Positions 19,331 through 43,564 of a stretch of DNA of 64,000 nt are shown one piece after another (positions within the stretch are counted from its first letter, which is position 1; each line of letters begins with the position of its first letter). The position numbers and the translations under genes were made by a program. A model generated the notes under the pieces. That model was not told the DNA's origin and did not search any database. It saw nothing but the letters and a program-made list of their open reading frames with translations. The stretch covers positions 93,362 through 157,361 of the forward strand of contig DAHXNI010000024.1 of NCBI GenBank assembly GCA_027365475.1. Reading direction: 5' to 3'. Origin of the DNA: Pseudomonadota bacterium. Its GTDB lineage: Bacteria; Pseudomonadota; Gammaproteobacteria; JAKAQQ01.

Positions 19331-20065
19331 ATGCCAAGCTGCATCATGAAAAAAATTCCCTCGCGTTCGGCTCGCACACGGCTGATCATTGCGCTGGATT
19401 GCCCCAACTACGATGCCGCAAGATCCCTGATCACTCGGTTGGGAAAGTCCGTTGAGATCTATAAAATCGGTCTGGAACTGCTCATGAGTGGTGATTTCTT
19501 TAAAGTTGTTGAATTACTTCACAAAATGGAGAAAGAAGTTTTCGCCGACATCAAGTTTTTTGATGTTCCCGCTACGGTGGCCCGTGCAGTTCGCAATCTG
19601 TCTCAATGGGGAATCACCTTCGCAACAGTGCACGGCAATCAGGCCATGATGGAAGCAGCCAACCAGGAAAAGGGTAACATGCGGCTTCTGGCCGTAACGG
19701 CACTCACGAGTCTCGATCAGGGTGACCTCGAAGATCTCGGTTTTGCATGCACCATTCGAGAGATCGTCATTTCACGCGCACGGCGTGCAATCGAAGCCGG
19801 GCTTGATGGCGTCGTCGCTTCCGGACATGAGATAGAAGAGCTGCGCAAAACTCTAGGCACCAAGTTTCTGATCGTGACACCTGGGATTCGCCCGATCAGC
19901 AATACAATTGAGGACGACCAGAAACGGGTGATTTCTGCACGGGCAGCACTCCTGGCCGGTGCCGACTACCTGGTTGTCGGCCGACCGATCCGGGATGCTC
20001 TGGATCCTCTGCAGGCAGCACACATTTTACAAAACGAAATATCTGAGTTCTTCGCACGTGCCTAG
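19331..20065 (+). CDS. pyrF: orotidine 5'-phosphate decarboxylase
   Basis: LIIALDCPNYDAARSLI...DIKFFDVPATV...LIVTPGIRP are hallmark PyrF motifs. Length is about 235-245 aa. Confidence 0.85.
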   Translation: MPSCIMKKIPSRSARTRLIIALDCPNYDAARSLITRLGKSVEIYKIGLELLMSGDFFKVVELLHKMEKEVFADIKFFDVPATVARAVRNLSQWGITFATVHGNQAMMEAANQEKGNMRLLAVTALTSLDQGDLEDLGFACTIREIVISRARRAIEAGLDGVVASGHEIEELRKTLGTKFLIVTPGIRPISNTIEDDQKRVISARAALLAGADYLVVGRPIRDALDPLQAAHILQNEISEFFARA

Positions 20066-38083: not shown

Positions 38084-38216
38084 CGTGTGCTACCCCGGTC
38101 AAACATGCTAGATCCGCCGCAAGCATACGCTTCTTCCACCGTCTCCGCTACAGGTCAAGGCACCTTGCGTCCCGACCCGGGGTTCCCGGACACAACCTCC
38201 GCGCCAGTCGTAGGGC

Positions 38217-38258
38217 TTGACATTATGAAGCCAAGGCTTTATATAATAGCCATGGCTA
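38217..38258 (+). promoter_or_regulatory. strong sigma70 promoter (TTGACA-17-TATATA/TATAAT) with an overlapping 12-bp palindrome TAGCCATGGCTA (putative MntR box)
   Basis: TTGACA at 38217-38222 and TATATAAT at 38240-38247. The perfect palindrome at 38247-38258 sits within aATAGCcatgGCTAc, which resembles the E. coli MntR site ATAGC-N4-GCTAT. It lies about 225 nt upstream of the Nramp ATG, in the mntR/mntH divergent region. Confidence 0.45.
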
Positions 38259-38481
38259 CAAACTCGTTCGAACCCATTTTCAAAGATGCTGGACTAGAGC
38301 AGAACGCCAATTATTTTGCTGCACGCCGGACACGGACTTGGCCACGTCGGATTCTTTCTCCGTCGCTTCAGTTTCTTTTATGGTCTCTGCGTGTATATGT
38401 TTTTGTGATGCTGAACGTGGTTGCAATTGAAGTGATGCGGGCGCTGGTCGCTTAAATATGGCTTCACCGGAACGCTAACTC

Positions 38482-39801: not shown

Positions 39802-40033
39802 CGCAAATTGTTGTGACACATCAGCACAAAATCCATCAATTGGACAAACAGTGTCTGACCTGCATACATCATCCTCGCCGGCGAATATCCCTATCCCTGA
39901 ACCCTCGCAGCAAAGTCGCTTGACGCTCAAGCCGAAACCATCCCGAATGCTCCTGAAACATAGGTCAGGCAAGGGTTTGGAACGTTTACCCATCTGCTAA
40001 ACCAGGCAATATGAATCAATGATCAAAAATAGC

Positions 40034-40061
40034 TTGCAAAAAATTAAAATACAGTTATACT
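40034..40061 (+). promoter_or_regulatory. putative sigma70 promoter in an AT-rich island (-35 TTGCAA, 16-nt spacer, -10 TATACT)
   Basis: Lies in an AT-rich stretch of about 100 nt (39995-40098) between mntH and the YtrA-ABC module, about 40 nt upstream of the ORF at 40099, which has a GAGGT RBS. Confidence 0.35.
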
Positions 40062-40098
40062 AGACCATAACAGTATTTCACTTTTTGAGGTTACGAAC

Positions 40099-40470
40099 AT
40101 GTCACTTCTTTTTTCGAAAAGTCGAGTAGCTCCTATAATCCGTGTAAATCAACAAGAAAGCAGCGCCCTCCATCTCCGTGGAGCCTTGGAATCTGTTTTT
40201 TTGTCGGATATAGTTATACTTGATTACAACACCAAACCCGCAGAAACCGAGAATCGCAGAGGGTGGGCTTCATGGAAATCATTATTACCAGCCGGACTTC
40301 TTCTGGGTACGCTCGTTGCCGTTTATTCTGGGGTTTCGGGCATTTTCGGAGCCCCCGACACGGTCTCGATCCATTTCATGGCCTGGGCACTGGCTGTCAC
40401 CGTCATTGCATCACTCCTCGTGAGCGGTGGGTTCCTCGCATTTGCAGCTCGCGAGCTCAGTATCCCCTGA
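40099..40470 (+). CDS. small membrane protein (123 aa, two C-terminal TM helices), first gene of the YtrA/ABC module
   Basis: GAGGT lies 7 nt upstream. The N-terminal 60 aa are soluble; two hydrophobic helices follow (LLPAGLLLGTLVAVYSGVSGIF, MAWALAVTVIASLLVSGGFLAF). GC content is lower than the surrounding DNA. Confidence 0.4.
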   Translation: MSLLFSKSRVAPIIRVNQQESSALHLRGALESVFLSDIVILDYNTKPAETENRRGWASWKSLLPAGLLLGTLVAVYSGVSGIFGAPDTVSIHFMAWALAVTVIASLLVSGGFLAFAARELSIP

Positions 40471-40517
40471 GTGGACAGACCCTGCACCCACATTCCATCC
40501 ACTGAGCGAGACAAACC

Positions 40518-40895
40518 ATGGCACAGCACACAACCTGGGATGACCGCGAACCAATATACCGGCAGTTGCGTGATCGTCTGGCCGCCATGATCCTCGACCA
40601 AAATGTGAAAGAAGGTGATGCGTTACCCTCGGTCCGGAGTATGGCAGCTGATTTCCAGCTGAACCCCCTGACCGTGCTCAAATCCTATCAGGGTCTCGTG
40701 GATGAAGGTGTGATCGAGAAACACCGGGGACTGGGCATGTATCTGGCACCGGGGGGGCGGGAGCGATTGCTCGAACGAGAACGCCGACGGTTTCTCGATC
40801 GCGACTGGCCAACCATCATCCAGACCATTGAACGTCTCGGGCTCGACCCCAAGGCGCTTGTCGACGCTCTTACCACCCAAACGCGGCCGGAGTAA
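40518..40895 (+). CDS. GntR-family transcriptional regulator, YtrA-like mini subfamily
   Basis: 125 aa with an N-terminal winged HTH (PIYRQLRDRLAAMILDQNVKEGDALPSVRSMAADFQLNPLTVLKSYQGLVDEGVIEKHRGLGMYL) and only about 50 aa C-terminal to it, which is the YtrA hallmark. Confidence 0.8.
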   Translation: MAQHTTWDDREPIYRQLRDRLAAMILDQNVKEGDALPSVRSMAADFQLNPLTVLKSYQGLVDEGVIEKHRGLGMYLAPGGRERLLERERRRFLDRDWPTIIQTIERLGLDPKALVDALTTQTRPE

Positions 40896-40900
40896 CTGAT

Positions 40901-41758
40901 ATGCCTGTACTTGTCGAAACAGATGCTTTGACCAAACGATACAAAAACCAGGTGGTTCTTGAAAATGTATCCATCGCGATTGAGGAAGGTTCGATTGTTG
41001 GTCTGCTCGGCCCCAATGGGGCCGGGAAATCAACCTTAATCCAGTGCATCCTGGGACTTCTTGCCTACGAAGGTCAATGCAGGACACTCGGACGGGATCC
41101 GAGACGTTCCCGTCACTTGCTCATGGAAAACACGACCTATGTGCCCGATCAGCTCTGCCTTCCGCTTTGGTTGAGTGTCGAACAGCTCCTTCAGTTCATG
41201 TGCAGCATCCATCCTCGCTTCTCGGAAAGCGAAGCGCGACGCTTCCTCAATCAAACAGAAATCAAGGGCTCATCAAAACTCTACAAACTGTCAAAGGGAA
41301 TGCTGGTTCAACTGCATCTGGCGCTGGCGCTGGCTACAGACAGCCAACTGCTGATCCTGGATGAACCCACACTCGGCCTAGATGTAACTCGGCGCAAGGA
41401 GTTCTGGAAACAAATCATCAACGACTATAGCGATGGGAAACGAACGTTGATCATCGCGACCCACTTGATTCAGGAAGTCGAGCATTTGGTCAGTCACTTG
41501 ATCCTGATAAACCATGGACGAATCACGCTCAACCAATCCATGGATTCTGTTCTGGAGCACTACCAAAGCGTTTTGGCTTTCCCTGGCCGCGCTCAGGATC
41601 TACGCGCCATGAATCCAGTCAAGGAACAGGAGGTATTCGGTCGGACCGTCTTTCTCTTCGAGGGCCGCTCGCCACGGGAACTCGCACAATATGGAGAAAT
41701 CCACCAGACCCATCTGACCGATATATTTGAAGCTGCCACTCAGAGGGACCCTTCATGA
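40901..41758 (+). CDS. ABC transporter ATP-binding protein
   Basis: Walker A GPNGAGKST, signature LSKGMLVQL and Walker B LLILDEPTLGLD. A C-terminal extension of about 80 aa is typical of ABC-2 partner ATPases. Confidence 0.85.
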   Translation: MPVLVETDALTKRYKNQVVLENVSIAIEEGSIVGLLGPNGAGKSTLIQCILGLLAYEGQCRTLGRDPRRSRHLLMENTTYVPDQLCLPLWLSVEQLLQFMCSIHPRFSESEARRFLNQTEIKGSSKLYKLSKGMLVQLHLALALATDSQLLILDEPTLGLDVTRRKEFWKQIINDYSDGKRTLIIATHLIQEVEHLVSHLILINHGRITLNQSMDSVLEHYQSVLAFPGRAQDLRAMNPVKEQEVFGRTVFLFEGRSPRELAQYGEIHQTHLTDIFEAATQRDPS

Positions 41759-42651
41759 ATGTCACCCGATTCGCTGCATTGGTCCGGCGTGAGCTTTGGG
41801 AGCGCCACTGGTTTATTCGACCCTGGCTCATCCTGTCGTGTCTGCTCGTCTTTTTCGGTTTGGTCGGGTTAACTTTGGTGGCGCTCTTCTCAACGACATT
41901 CGAAATCCGGGTGCAAGACTCCGTGACGCATCCGAGTGGAGCCATCCTCTTTCTGGGGCTGGGTACGATTTTCGGTCTGATCCTTCTGCTCCGCATCGCA
42001 AGCTATTTTGCGCATACCCTCCACGATGAACGGATGGATCGAAGCTATGTTTTCTGGAAATCCATTCCGGTTTCAGACACAGCAACGGTGGGCAGCAAGG
42101 TTTTTACGGGTCTTTTCGTCATACCTGTTGTGACCTGGGTCTGCCTCATTGCAACGAGCCTCATCCTGCTTTTCTTTCTCAGTCTGGCCACCAGTTTACT
42201 CGGACACAACTTCTGGGGAAGCTTCTGGGCGCCCGGTTCATTGATATCGACCAGTCTCTACCTGGCGGCTGTGTTTCTCACGCTGCCGCTTTGGTTCTTC
42301 CCGCTTTTGGCATGGTTCTTGCTCTGCTCGGCATGGAGCAGCCCGCGCATCAGAAAAAGCCCCCTTTTCATGGCCCTCGTGATTCCAGCGGCTCTGCTCT
42401 TGCTGGAACCTCTTCTCCTCGGGACTGATCTTTTTGCCTCCTGGCTCGCCAAGCTCTTCACTCCGATCAAACTGATCCTGATGCACACCTACAATCCCCC
42501 CCACTGGAGCTATGGACTCACCATGCCGGTTAGTTGGCTGGATTGGGCCCGTCTCTTCACTCAGCCCGAACTGTGGTGGGGTGGGCTGATTGGCCTCATC
42601 TTCACAGCTCTGGCCGTTTACCTCAGGCACCGCACTGAATCACATCGCTAA
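41755..42651 (+). CDS. ABC-2 type permease (6 TM)
   Basis: Start overlaps the ATPase stop (ATGA). About 6 hydrophobic helices, no soluble domains, 298 aa. Confidence 0.7.
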   Translation: MNVTRFAALVRRELWERHWFIRPWLILSCLLVFFGLVGLTLVALFSTTFEIRVQDSVTHPSGAILFLGLGTIFGLILLLRIASYFAHTLHDERMDRSYVFWKSIPVSDTATVGSKVFTGLFVIPVVTWVCLIATSLILLFFLSLATSLLGHNFWGSFWAPGSLISTSLYLAAVFLTLPLWFFPLLAWFLLCSAWSSPRIRKSPLFMALVIPAALLLLEPLLLGTDLFASWLAKLFTPIKLILMHTYNPPHWSYGLTMPVSWLDWARLFTQPELWWGGLIGLIFTALAVYLRHRTESHR

Positions 42652-42697
42652 GCCCGTTTGGTTGCAGCGTTTATCCATACTCCGTTATGAGGACATT

Positions 42698-43564
42698 CGT
42701 ATGAACCAAGTCACCACTCAACACTTCTATCGCCACGCATTCCTCCTCTTTCTTTTGGCCACGCTGGTGTTGACAACTGCAAAAGGCGCCCCATCCACAG
42801 TACACATCCTGAAGCTCAGTCACACAACGTTGACGCCTGCGGGTATCCAGCTGCTTCAGCTCAAAAACCGGGTTGGAACAGTTGTCTTCCAGGGGTCCCG
42901 AGATCAGATGATTCAGATCCACGCAAAGATCAAACCCCTGAATCATCATGGGGTCTATTTCTTTGGTCTCTTTTCCTGTTGCACTCAACGCTTCCAGAAG
43001 GAAATAGAGACTGCCTCCCTGCTCATCAAACGGAAGAAAACACACACACTCGTCATTTCACTCGATCTGCCACACGACCGCTCTCTCAAACATATCAAAG
43101 TCGATTGGAGCATCGAGGCGCCGGAGGATTTGGGTCTCAAGCTAAGAAATAACGTCGGCCCGATTGATATTCACGACATGGCAGGTACGATTCTTGTACA
43201 CAACAATGTCGGATCAATTGCGATCGGCGAGGCGCGCGCGAATGTAAATGCGAGCGTCAATGTTGGAACCATCTCAATCAGTGGAGCCAGACATTCCGTG
43301 TCGGCTAAAACGAATGTGGGATCGATCCATGTCCTGAGTGCAATAACATCAATCCATCGAATCAACCTCGACACGAATATTGGGACGCTCCATCTCGCAG
43401 GGATGCCCGTACGCGGGGGTTCGGGTTCCACGTCGACCTCGGTTCCCGTGGGTGGAAACTACCGATATACCGGTTCCGGCCGCTATACGATCCGCCTCAA
43501 GGCCAATATCGGAAAAATCGATTTGACACTTTCCGGCTCGCCAACTAAAGGCAGGAACCATTAG
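42698..43564 (+). CDS. secreted beta-helix repeat protein (DUF4097/putative-adhesin-like)
   Basis: GAGGA lies 8 nt upstream of the ATG at 42698. N-terminal signal-like segment (AFLLFLLATLVLTTAKGA). Six tandem repeats of about 20 aa with core (N/T)N(V/I)G-x-I-x-(I/L): NNVGPIDIHD, NNVGSIAIGE, VNVGTISISG, TNVGSIHVLS, TNIGTLHLAG, ANIGKIDLTL. The track start at 42590 overlaps the permease. Confidence 0.65.
   Translation, partial: RMNQVTTQHFYRHAFLLFLLATLVLTTAKGAPSTVHILKLSHTTLTPAGIQLLQLKNRVGTVVFQGSRDQMIQIHAKIKPLNHHGVYFFGLFSCCTQRFQKEIETASLLIKRKKTHTLVISLDLPHDRSLKHIKVDWSIEAPEDLGLKLRNNVGPIDIHDMAGTILVHNNVGSIAIGEARANVNASVNVGTISISGARHSVSAKTNVGSIHVLSAITSIHRINLDTNIGTLHLAGMPVRGGSGSTSTSVPVGGNYRYTGSGRYTIRLKANIGKIDLTLSGSPTKGRNH

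Follow-up and report, generated by a model that had tools for sequence, protein, structure and literature searches.

Is the five-gene module at positions 40099-43564 of a 64,000-nucleotide (nt) stretch of gammaproteobacterial DNA (contig DAHXNI010000024.1) a new and horizontally acquired system, or a relative of something already described? A first-pass annotation of this stretch had favoured the former. All coordinates below are positions in the whole 64,000-nt stretch, hereafter the window, and g1 to g5 denote the five module genes in their order. The forward strand carries all of them. Gene g1 (40099-40470) encodes a small membrane protein of 123 amino acids (aa), whose N-terminal tail is poorly constrained and whose C-terminal part has two transmembrane (TM) helices. 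It is followed by g2 (40518-40895), encoding a 125-aa GntR protein of the YtrA subfamily that is predicted to act as a repressor, and by g3 (40901-41758), encoding a 285-aa ABC ATPase with a C-terminal extension of ~60 aa. The product of g4 (41755-42651) is a 298-aa permease with a predicted ABC-2 (type V) fold and ~6 TM helices. Finally, g5 (42701-43564) encodes a 287-aa exported or membrane-anchored protein, a putative Toastrack (DUF4097-like) single-stranded beta-helix.

Our analysis indicates that g1-g5 likely form one self-repressed operon of an uncultured gammaproteobacterium, and that this operon belongs to a known kind. As judged by sequence comparison, its architecture is a divergent member of that type and not a new system. 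What is new here is a family-wide operator of 24 bp that is present twice in the window, the orphan status of g1, and the occurrence of Toastrack genes at 7 of 80 loci of the transporter family.

All five open reading frames (ORFs) were found where the first-pass annotation had placed them, apart from the start of g5, which is at 42701 and not at 42698. The ATG at 42701 has a GAGGA Shine-Dalgarno sequence 7 nt upstream, and the translation equals the 287-aa database protein P0001 (100% identity; NCBI name 'DUF4097 family beta strand repeat-containing protein'). The intergenic gaps from g1 to g5 are 47, 5, -4 and 49 nt, and the ATGA coupling of g3 and g4 reported earlier is visible in the ORFs as the 4-nt overlap.

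The operon type was described by Ravi et al. 2024 (mSystems; PMC11237479) as GNTR-HTH > ABC-ATPase > permease > TM+Toastrack (> DUF2884). They report it mostly from Proteobacteria and Bacteroidetes, and the type example is Xanthomonas citri XAC1545 (main text, Text S2.4/Table S4). Its order of GntR, ATPase, permease and N-terminally anchored Toastrack is the same as that of g2-g5. A literature search for XAC1542-1546 gave no match; loci of Stenotrophomonas and Arenimonas, together with the X. campestris GntR protein P0203, were used as proxies for these genes. Two Stenotrophomonas loci (L075, L095) and one Arenimonas locus (L076) carry GntR-ABC-permease-Toastrack (Pfam DUF4097/DUF2807), and DUF2884 lies downstream in L075 and L095 only. 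The identity between the Stenotrophomonas/Arenimonas operons and the window is 55/53% for g2, 43/40% for g3 and 30/28% for g4, and they share the operator family and the promoter geometry of the window. A small ORF precedes the GntR gene in S. maltophilia too, where the full layout is glutathione-peroxidase gene, small ORF, GntR, ABC, permease, Toastrack, DUF2884 and a 141-aa ORF. Hence, the claim that this arrangement was undescribed does not hold, because the same order is found in Ravi et al. 2024, homologous operons exist in Stenotrophomonas and Arenimonas, and the regulator HpaR1/YtrA has been studied.

The window also differs from these operons in several respects. The Toastrack proteins of Stenotrophomonas and Arenimonas are linked to g5 only transitively, via the DUF4097 proteins of four other loci (L027, L045, L069, L071). 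Moreover, g5 has NVGxI repeats where the Ravi-type proteins have GSGD repeats, and it is too divergent for Pfam DUF4097. The DUF2884 lipoprotein gene has no counterpart after g5; the next gene is a kefC-like gene convergent to g5, which ends 27 nt past it. Furthermore, g1 has two TM helices, shares no sequence relationship with the small ORFs of other clades, and contains a second operator within its coding sequence.

Regulator, promoter and operators

The g2 protein matches Pfam GntR (PF00392) at residues 14-75 with an E-value of 1.8e-10 and 40.7 bits (cut-off 27). Its winged helix-turn-helix domain is followed by 50 residues, giving a total of 125 aa. The YtrA subfamily is characterised by a length of ~120-130 aa and by only ~50 C-terminal residues (two helices) as effector/oligomerisation domain (Rigali 2002, in the part of PMC6746942 that refers to it). 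Among solved mini-GntRs, 3TQN (E 1.5e-35; residues 6-115), 3NEU (3-123) and 4R1H (7-114) match most or all of the length of g2, and 2DU9/2EK5 (12-97) and 6SBS (8-67) give weaker, partial matches. Domain, C-terminal length and structure matches all agree with the earlier assignment of g2 as a YtrA-type mini-GntR. The solved 113-aa GntR 3TQN matches g2 far better than the other solved mini-GntRs, and could be a template for the whole HpaR1-type family.

With 55% identity to P0203, the 120-aa GntR of X. campestris, g2 is by sequence an orthologue-level relative of the HpaR1-type GntR of Xanthomonas and Stenotrophomonas. HpaR1 of X. campestris is an autorepressor of the YtrA subfamily (PMC4730234) encoded by XC_2736 (PMC8995066), and its X. 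citri homologue is called YtrA (PMC7777525). The regulator is pleiotropic, with effects on virulence, xanthan, motility and stress tolerance (PMC4730234, PMC6430473, PMC7777525). In RNA-seq of an hpaR1 deletion mutant of X. campestris pv. campestris (Xcc), XC_2737 ('nodI', ABC ATPase) was upregulated 15.02-fold, and the hypothetical genes XC_2738, XC_2739 and XC_2740 were upregulated 13.33-, 14.97- and 13.84-fold, respectively (PMC6430473 Table S1). In the same mutant, XC_2741 was upregulated 2.32-fold and XC_2735 (btuE) downregulated 2.91-fold (PMC6430473). The GntR of the Stenotrophomonas operon and P0203 share one 90%-identity cluster. From this shared cluster, the matching layout and the derepression of XC_2737-2740, we infer, through synteny rather than accession, that HpaR1 is very probably the repressor of the Xanthomonas version of the operon.

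The 13-15-fold derepression of four downstream genes upon deletion of hpaR1 is the regulatory logic that we propose for the window operon as well. Nothing in the window corresponds to the wider HpaR1 regulon (gum, hrp, engXCA), which pertains to the life of a plant pathogen. The sequence GTGT(N15-20)ACAC in PMC6430473 was considered as an HpaR1 motif and discarded, as it is the Clp site.

The intergenic sequence before g1 is an AT-rich leader (39995-40098; 29.8% GC) that holds a promoter, an operator (O1) and the ribosome-binding site of g1. In agreement with the first-pass annotation, it contains the lowest-GC 100-nt segments of the 64 kb, which extend over 39954-40160 (minimum 0.27; window mean 0.543, standard deviation 0.05). 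The sole other place with a 100-nt GC below 0.36 is 19443-19561 (minimum 0.35), within or next to the ORF at 19331-20065. An Rfam scan of the whole window gave no match, and hence no riboswitch in the leader.

Promoter P1 (40034-40061, + strand) is sigma70-like, with the -35 hexamer TTGCAA (40034-40039), a 16-nt spacer and the -10 hexamer TATACT (40056-40061). The promoter scan gave it 9 of the 12 consensus positions, and both hexamers are invariant in the alignment of orthologous loci. The sequence from ~40030 to the ATG of g1 is nearly invariant across five orthologous loci whose proteins share just 57-72% identity. These observations support the promoter proposed earlier for this leader, with the reservation that promoter-like sites in the region are in no excess (three found against 2.8 expected from shuffled sequences).

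An inverted-repeat search identified the palindrome O1 (40051-40074, +; ACAGTTATAC-TAGA-CCATAACAGT) over the -10 hexamer of P1, as the predicted binding site of g2. Its core GTTAT-N8-ATAAC occurs once in the window. O1 is conserved in the orthologues, at a position equivalent to that of the family operator.

We used a motif of the g4 permease, E-R-x-D-R-S-x-x-F-W-K-S-x-P-V-S-D, to find related loci in one genome per species. The scan yielded at least 600 loci, and the neighbourhood counts given here refer to the best 80 of these. An operator matrix was built from 23 sites found by palindrome search upstream of the GntR genes of the family. The family operator is a 24-bp palindrome, GGTGTTATAG-TTAA-CTACAACACC (loci L012-L094; consensus GGTGTTATAGTTAACTACAACACC), that contains a -10-like TATAGT. 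It was the single best matrix match, upstream of the GntR gene, in 73 of the 79 loci. Scores ranged from 15 to 39 bits, with the next-best site mostly below ~5 bits, and in most loci the operator was the lone strong site in ~13 kb. It lies adjacent to the GntR gene in 14 loci, 140-520 nt upstream in 43 of the 79, and further upstream in 16. The gap of 140-520 nt in this commonest layout leaves room for a small ORF, often with one TM helix. In S. maltophilia, the -10 hexamer (TTGCAC-16-TATAGT) lies within the operator, and 23 nt separate the end of the operator from the small ORF, which is the geometry of P1, O1 and g1.

The best match to the family matrix in the window is a second palindrome, O2 (40210-40233, +; ATAGTTATAC-TTGA-TTACAACACC), which lies inside the coding sequence of g1 and scores 16.1 bits, above all 50 shuffles. 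O1 is the second-best match in the 64 kb with 9.8 bits (shuffle mean 6.3, maximum 12.3). O2 forms part of a conserved block of 48 nt (40186-40233, +) that also contains a promoter-like TTGGAA-17-TATAGT. Across the four orthologues, few changes occur in this block at any of the three codon positions (differences 0.12/0.09/0.21), synonymous positions included, whereas the flanking parts of g1 are unconstrained. It is thus probably a regulatory element at the DNA level, embedded in the g1 ORF. A distance of 159 bp separates the centres of O1 and O2, and O2 may serve in looping with O1 or as part of an internal promoter.

Nucleotides 1-87 and 136-177 of g1 show no coding signature, whereas nucleotides 178-369, the TM region, do (differences by codon position 0.28/0.12/0.49). 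The frame is open from a conserved ATG in all four orthologues, and this ATG and a GAGG Shine-Dalgarno sequence are conserved in the orthologous loci. We conclude that g1 is probably translated from 40099, with the regulatory element within its tail. Hydropathy places the two C-terminal TM helices, which the first reading had recognised, at residues 61-79 and 97-115.

The g1 protein has no match in Pfam, NCBIfam or PADLOC, and only three relatives, all from its own clade, among 1.84 billion representative proteins. At the sequence level it is a clade-restricted orphan. It has no similarity to the small ORF of Wenzhouxiangella, and the small ORFs of other clades are unrelated to it in sequence. 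As a position in the operon, however, a dedicated small membrane protein is not the novelty it had been taken for, since in S. maltophilia the GntR gene is directly preceded by an annotated ORF of 79 aa with a single hydrophobic segment, and B. subtilis has ytrG in the equivalent position.

Transporter and Toastrack protein

The ABC ATPase proposed for g3 is borne out by Pfam ABC_tran (PF00005; 86.6 bits). Its nearest NCBIfam models are PmtA, GldA and DrrA, all under their cut-offs, and its nearest PDB sequences are the nucleotide-binding domains of ABCA1/ABCA7, Rv1218c, ABCG and NosF. The permease is less visible to sequence models. In Pfam, g4 matches ABC2_membrane_5 alone, below threshold (E 0.042; 13.8 bits against a cut-off of 25); the corresponding score of family permeases is E 5.7e-5 for L075 and 'weak' for L095. 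A profile search of PDB sequences with the g4 family gave no match. Despite the sub-threshold Pfam match, the predicted structure of g4 has the ABC-2 fold expected from the first reading, with the six helices of a type V transmembrane domain. PmtD is its best fold match, and NosY is among the top matches. Together, g3 and g4 would form a type V ABC exporter, with the fold taken from the model.

The fold of g4 invites comparison with NosDFY (PDB 7O0Y, 7O17, 7QBA, 7ZNQ), in which the ABC-2 permease NosY has a periplasmic beta-helix partner. By this architectural analogy, g3/g4 would be a mechanotransducer that exports no substrate: ATP hydrolysis would drive a conformational change in g5 docked on the permease. 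The position of NosY as a top fold match of g4 speaks for this possibility. However, most members of the family lack a Toastrack, and we consider such a mechanism unlikely. The listed fold matches of g5 (top 50) include no NosD chain, and no nosZ, nosL, nosR or other nos genes were found in the neighbourhood. NosD belongs to a beta-helix class different from Toastrack. If the mechanotransducer were real, it would for the first time provide a mechanism for the widespread Toastrack domain (LiaG, LiaF, YvlB), which would be a periplasmic effector or sensor driven by an ABC module; g1 and the dual operators O1/O2 would tune expression.

The fold of g5 had been predicted as a DUF4097-type beta-helix, and remote matches and structure prediction both point in this direction. 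Directly, g5 matches no Pfam family at E<=0.1 (PF13349, PF10988 and PF09922 included), and no NCBIfam model. Its remote matches P0006-P0012, at E 2.7e-7 to 5.5e-5 against 5.8 billion sequences, carry PF13349. Proteins of L027, L045, L069 and L071 are matched as well, at E 2e-5 to 3.5e-8, and the two of these that were scanned contain Pfam DUF4097 (63.5 bits in L071, 97.3 bits in L027). In a Foldseek search with the AF2 model of g5 (mean predicted local distance difference test, pLDDT, 76.8), the best solved structure was 4QRK (E 1.5e-8; probability 1.00; TM-score 0.41/0.53), followed by 3LYC, 3PET, 4YGU and 4OPW. Both 4QRK and 4OPW are named as Toastrack exemplars by Ravi et al. 2024 (PMC11237479). 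A profile search of the PDB with the g5 family returned only 4QRK, at an uninformative E-value of 0.65. By remote homology and predicted fold, g5 is therefore assigned as a Toastrack/DUF4097 protein.

The N-terminus of g5 has a hydrophobic helix (residues 13-31) with a plausible A-x-G/A cleavage site. The tandem NxG-type repeats reported for this protein are present, but they number seven N[VI]G motifs instead of six, spaced by 18/18/18/21 residues in the helix core. Residues 81-94 (42941-42982; HHGVYFFGLFSCC) form a clade-specific insert with two adjacent cysteines and low pLDDT. The insert occurs in all four orthologues and is absent, as a gap in the alignment, from other DUF4097 proteins. 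These cysteines may form a disulfide or bind a metal in the periplasm.

The wider permease family (L015-L094; motif DRS[IY][LV]FWKS), which escapes Pfam thresholds, occurs in Gammaproteobacteria, Acidobacteriota and some Alphaproteobacteria. Almost all of the best 80 loci have a GntR and an ABC ATPase gene alongside that of the permease, with identities of 53-56% to g2, 40-47% to g3 and 28-32% to g4. The gene after the permease varies by clade and encodes a BON, DUF3187, DUF4386, DUF2306, Dps-like or Toastrack protein. We searched all ORFs of the 80 loci with a hidden Markov model (HMM) built from all Toastrack sequences found, unfiltered and at E<=1, and detected a Toastrack at seven loci. 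Toastrack is thus a minority accessory of this transporter family. Since it is absent from the other 73 loci, the transporter cannot depend on it as a core component, and its adjacency in only seven weakens the earlier idea of a periplasmic partnership between the beta-helix protein and the transporter.

This census bears on whether g5, and g1 with it, belong to the system at all. They could be independent passengers, with g5 a Toastrack 'adhesin' or scaffold on a shared transcript and the triad of GntR, ABC ATPase and permease constituting the whole system. Such a reading would agree with three observations: nearly every family locus has the triad, the gene that follows the permease differs between clades, and g1 is an orphan. 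Yet no fewer than three distinct groups of Gammaproteobacteria have a Toastrack beside a permease of this family, and in Xcc the gene taken to encode the Toastrack, XC_2739, is co-derepressed 15-fold with the ATPase. Moreover, a small ORF between operator and GntR gene is the commonest layout (43/79). We therefore regard independent passengers as improbable, and favour one self-repressed operon of the described type.

Several results weigh against the operon as we read it. O1 scores only 9.8 bits against the family matrix, less than the highest-scoring shuffle (12.3). The window lacks the DUF2884 lipoprotein gene of the Ravi-type operon, and 73 of the 80 sampled family loci lack a Toastrack. 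Finally, XC_2736 is identified as the GntR of the operon by synteny (a btuE/GSHPx neighbour, GSHPx denoting glutathione peroxidase, and an ABC ATPase plus three hypothetical genes downstream) and by the X. citri architecture of Ravi et al.

Inheritance and neighbourhood

The flanks of the module are cation-transport loci, as the first reading had stated: the recorded Pfam families indicate an MntR-like regulator and an Nramp transporter upstream, and a KefC-like exchanger and Kup downstream. Contigs of 'Gammaproteobacteria bacterium' genomes assembled from metagenomes (JGI 3300024473; GCA_054609815.1) are identical to the window over this stretch. There are only three close relatives of g5, at 72, 67 and 57% identity, and the source label of one relative, 'mine drainage metagenome', is the sole clue to a habitat. 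The same five genes stand in the same order between the Nramp and KefC-like genes in all four relatives, down to 57% protein identity.

Codon usage of g3 (z 0.07) and g5 (z 0.16) is indistinguishable from that of the other long ORFs of the window. Both g2 and g4 (z +1.7 to +2.0) look somewhat more 'native' than the average ORF, and only the short g1 has a low value (z -2). As had been noticed, the GC content of g1 is below average (0.505 against the window mean of 0.543), with a GC content at third codon positions of 0.47 (z about -2); that of the other four genes is average or above. The constant slot and the window-like codon usage leave no sign of recent acquisition. The module is probably vertically inherited. 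Synteny and codon usage reject a recent horizontal transfer and do not support the acquisition that the first-pass annotation had suggested.

A more specific form of this proposal is that the module was acquired by insertion between the two cation-transport loci, as a cassette for export of, or immunity to, a toxin of peptide or lipid nature. The AT-rich leader and the somewhat lower GC of g1 would fit, as would the similarity to the Pmt exporter of phenol-soluble modulin (PSM) toxins: PmtR and PmtA are the nearest NCBIfam models of g2 and g3, and PmtD is the best fold match of g4. However, the constant slot and the codon usage given above count against insertion, and the AT-richness has another origin, because the promoter and operator elements have a high AT content throughout the family. 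No mobile-element gene was called in the window-identical locus, and the locus neighbourhood contains no toxin or biosynthetic gene. PADLOC, with its models of known anti-phage defence systems, found nothing specific, with generic ABC/AAA similarity for g3 alone and no match for g2, g4 and g5. We consider an acquired cassette very improbable.

Within the clade, the most distant relative alone has a DDE_3 transposase upstream; there, DDE_3 and Usp genes flank the Nramp gene upstream of the module (L008 3812-4417; L009 181-786). This implies that the neighbourhood was rearranged while the module stayed in place.

A Pmt system itself was ruled out, as the scores are far under the equivalog cut-offs (PmtR 40.3 bits against 200, PmtA 128.4 against 350). 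The pmtR-pmtABCD system of S. aureus, a PSM exporter, has two ATPases and two permeases and lacks a Toastrack or small leader gene. The window has no PSM-like genes.

A functional tie between the module and the flanking Mn and K transporters was likewise set aside, because it would rest only on synteny in one narrow clade and the module neighbours differ in other clades. Another small ORF (38087-38455, +; 116-122 aa) lies between the mntR-like and Nramp genes and has no Pfam family on record. Gene finders also call its version in relatives, with 116-117 aa in L001 and L005 and 76 aa in L011.

Proposed mechanism and significance

In the one-operon reading, a dimer of g2 would bind O1 over the -10 hexamer of P1, and probably also O2, and shut off g1-g5. 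Regulators of the YtrA subfamily repress, through a palindromic operator at their own promoter, an operon that includes an ABC transporter. In the window, the GntR and ABC transporter genes adjoin and the palindromes O1/O2 are conserved; binding and repression by g2 are predictions from sequence, and the experimental repression is that by the Xanthomonas homologue. A signal would then release g2. This signal is probably derived from the membrane or envelope, because YtrA-type repressors lack a ligand domain beyond two dimerisation helices. Release would be analogous to that of PmtR, which is released by exported peptides binding the repressor (PMC5080381), and of YtrA in B. subtilis, where the Ytr operon is induced by cell-envelope-active (cell-wall) antibiotics (PMC7828314). 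Upon derepression, g3/g4 would assemble into the modelled type V ABC exporter. The exported g5 could act as an accessory at the periplasmic face, and g1 as a small inner-membrane accessory.

The B. subtilis ytrGABCDEF operon (PMC7828314) offers a further regulatory parallel, drawn from its published description. YtrA controls its own ABC operon, and ytrG precedes ytrA as g1 precedes g2. This Gram-positive operon differs from the window in that it encodes a substrate-binding-like protein besides two ATPases and two permeases, and lacks a Toastrack. LiaG, LiaF and YvlB of the Firmicute envelope stress response belong to the same Toastrack fold class as g5 (as defined in PMC11237479), with a different regulator and partners. 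In the 10 kb to each side of the module, the called genes and their Pfam families included no PspA/LiaH, LiaI, LiaF-TM or LiaRS. By these analogies, the envelope-associated role suggested earlier for the module appears reasonable.

As a discovery the operon carries little weight, since its architecture has been catalogued and its regulator studied in Xanthomonas. The operator in the coding sequence of g1 would be a neat case of a regulatory site that constrains synonymous positions. The locus also joins the Toastrack-ABC-GntR operon, HpaR1/YtrA and a Pfam-invisible ABC-2 permease family of at least 600 loci with a near-universal operator, which are apparently unconnected in the literature that we searched. 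This connection suggests culturable strains of Xanthomonas and Stenotrophomonas as the place to learn the function of the transporter and its Toastrack protein.

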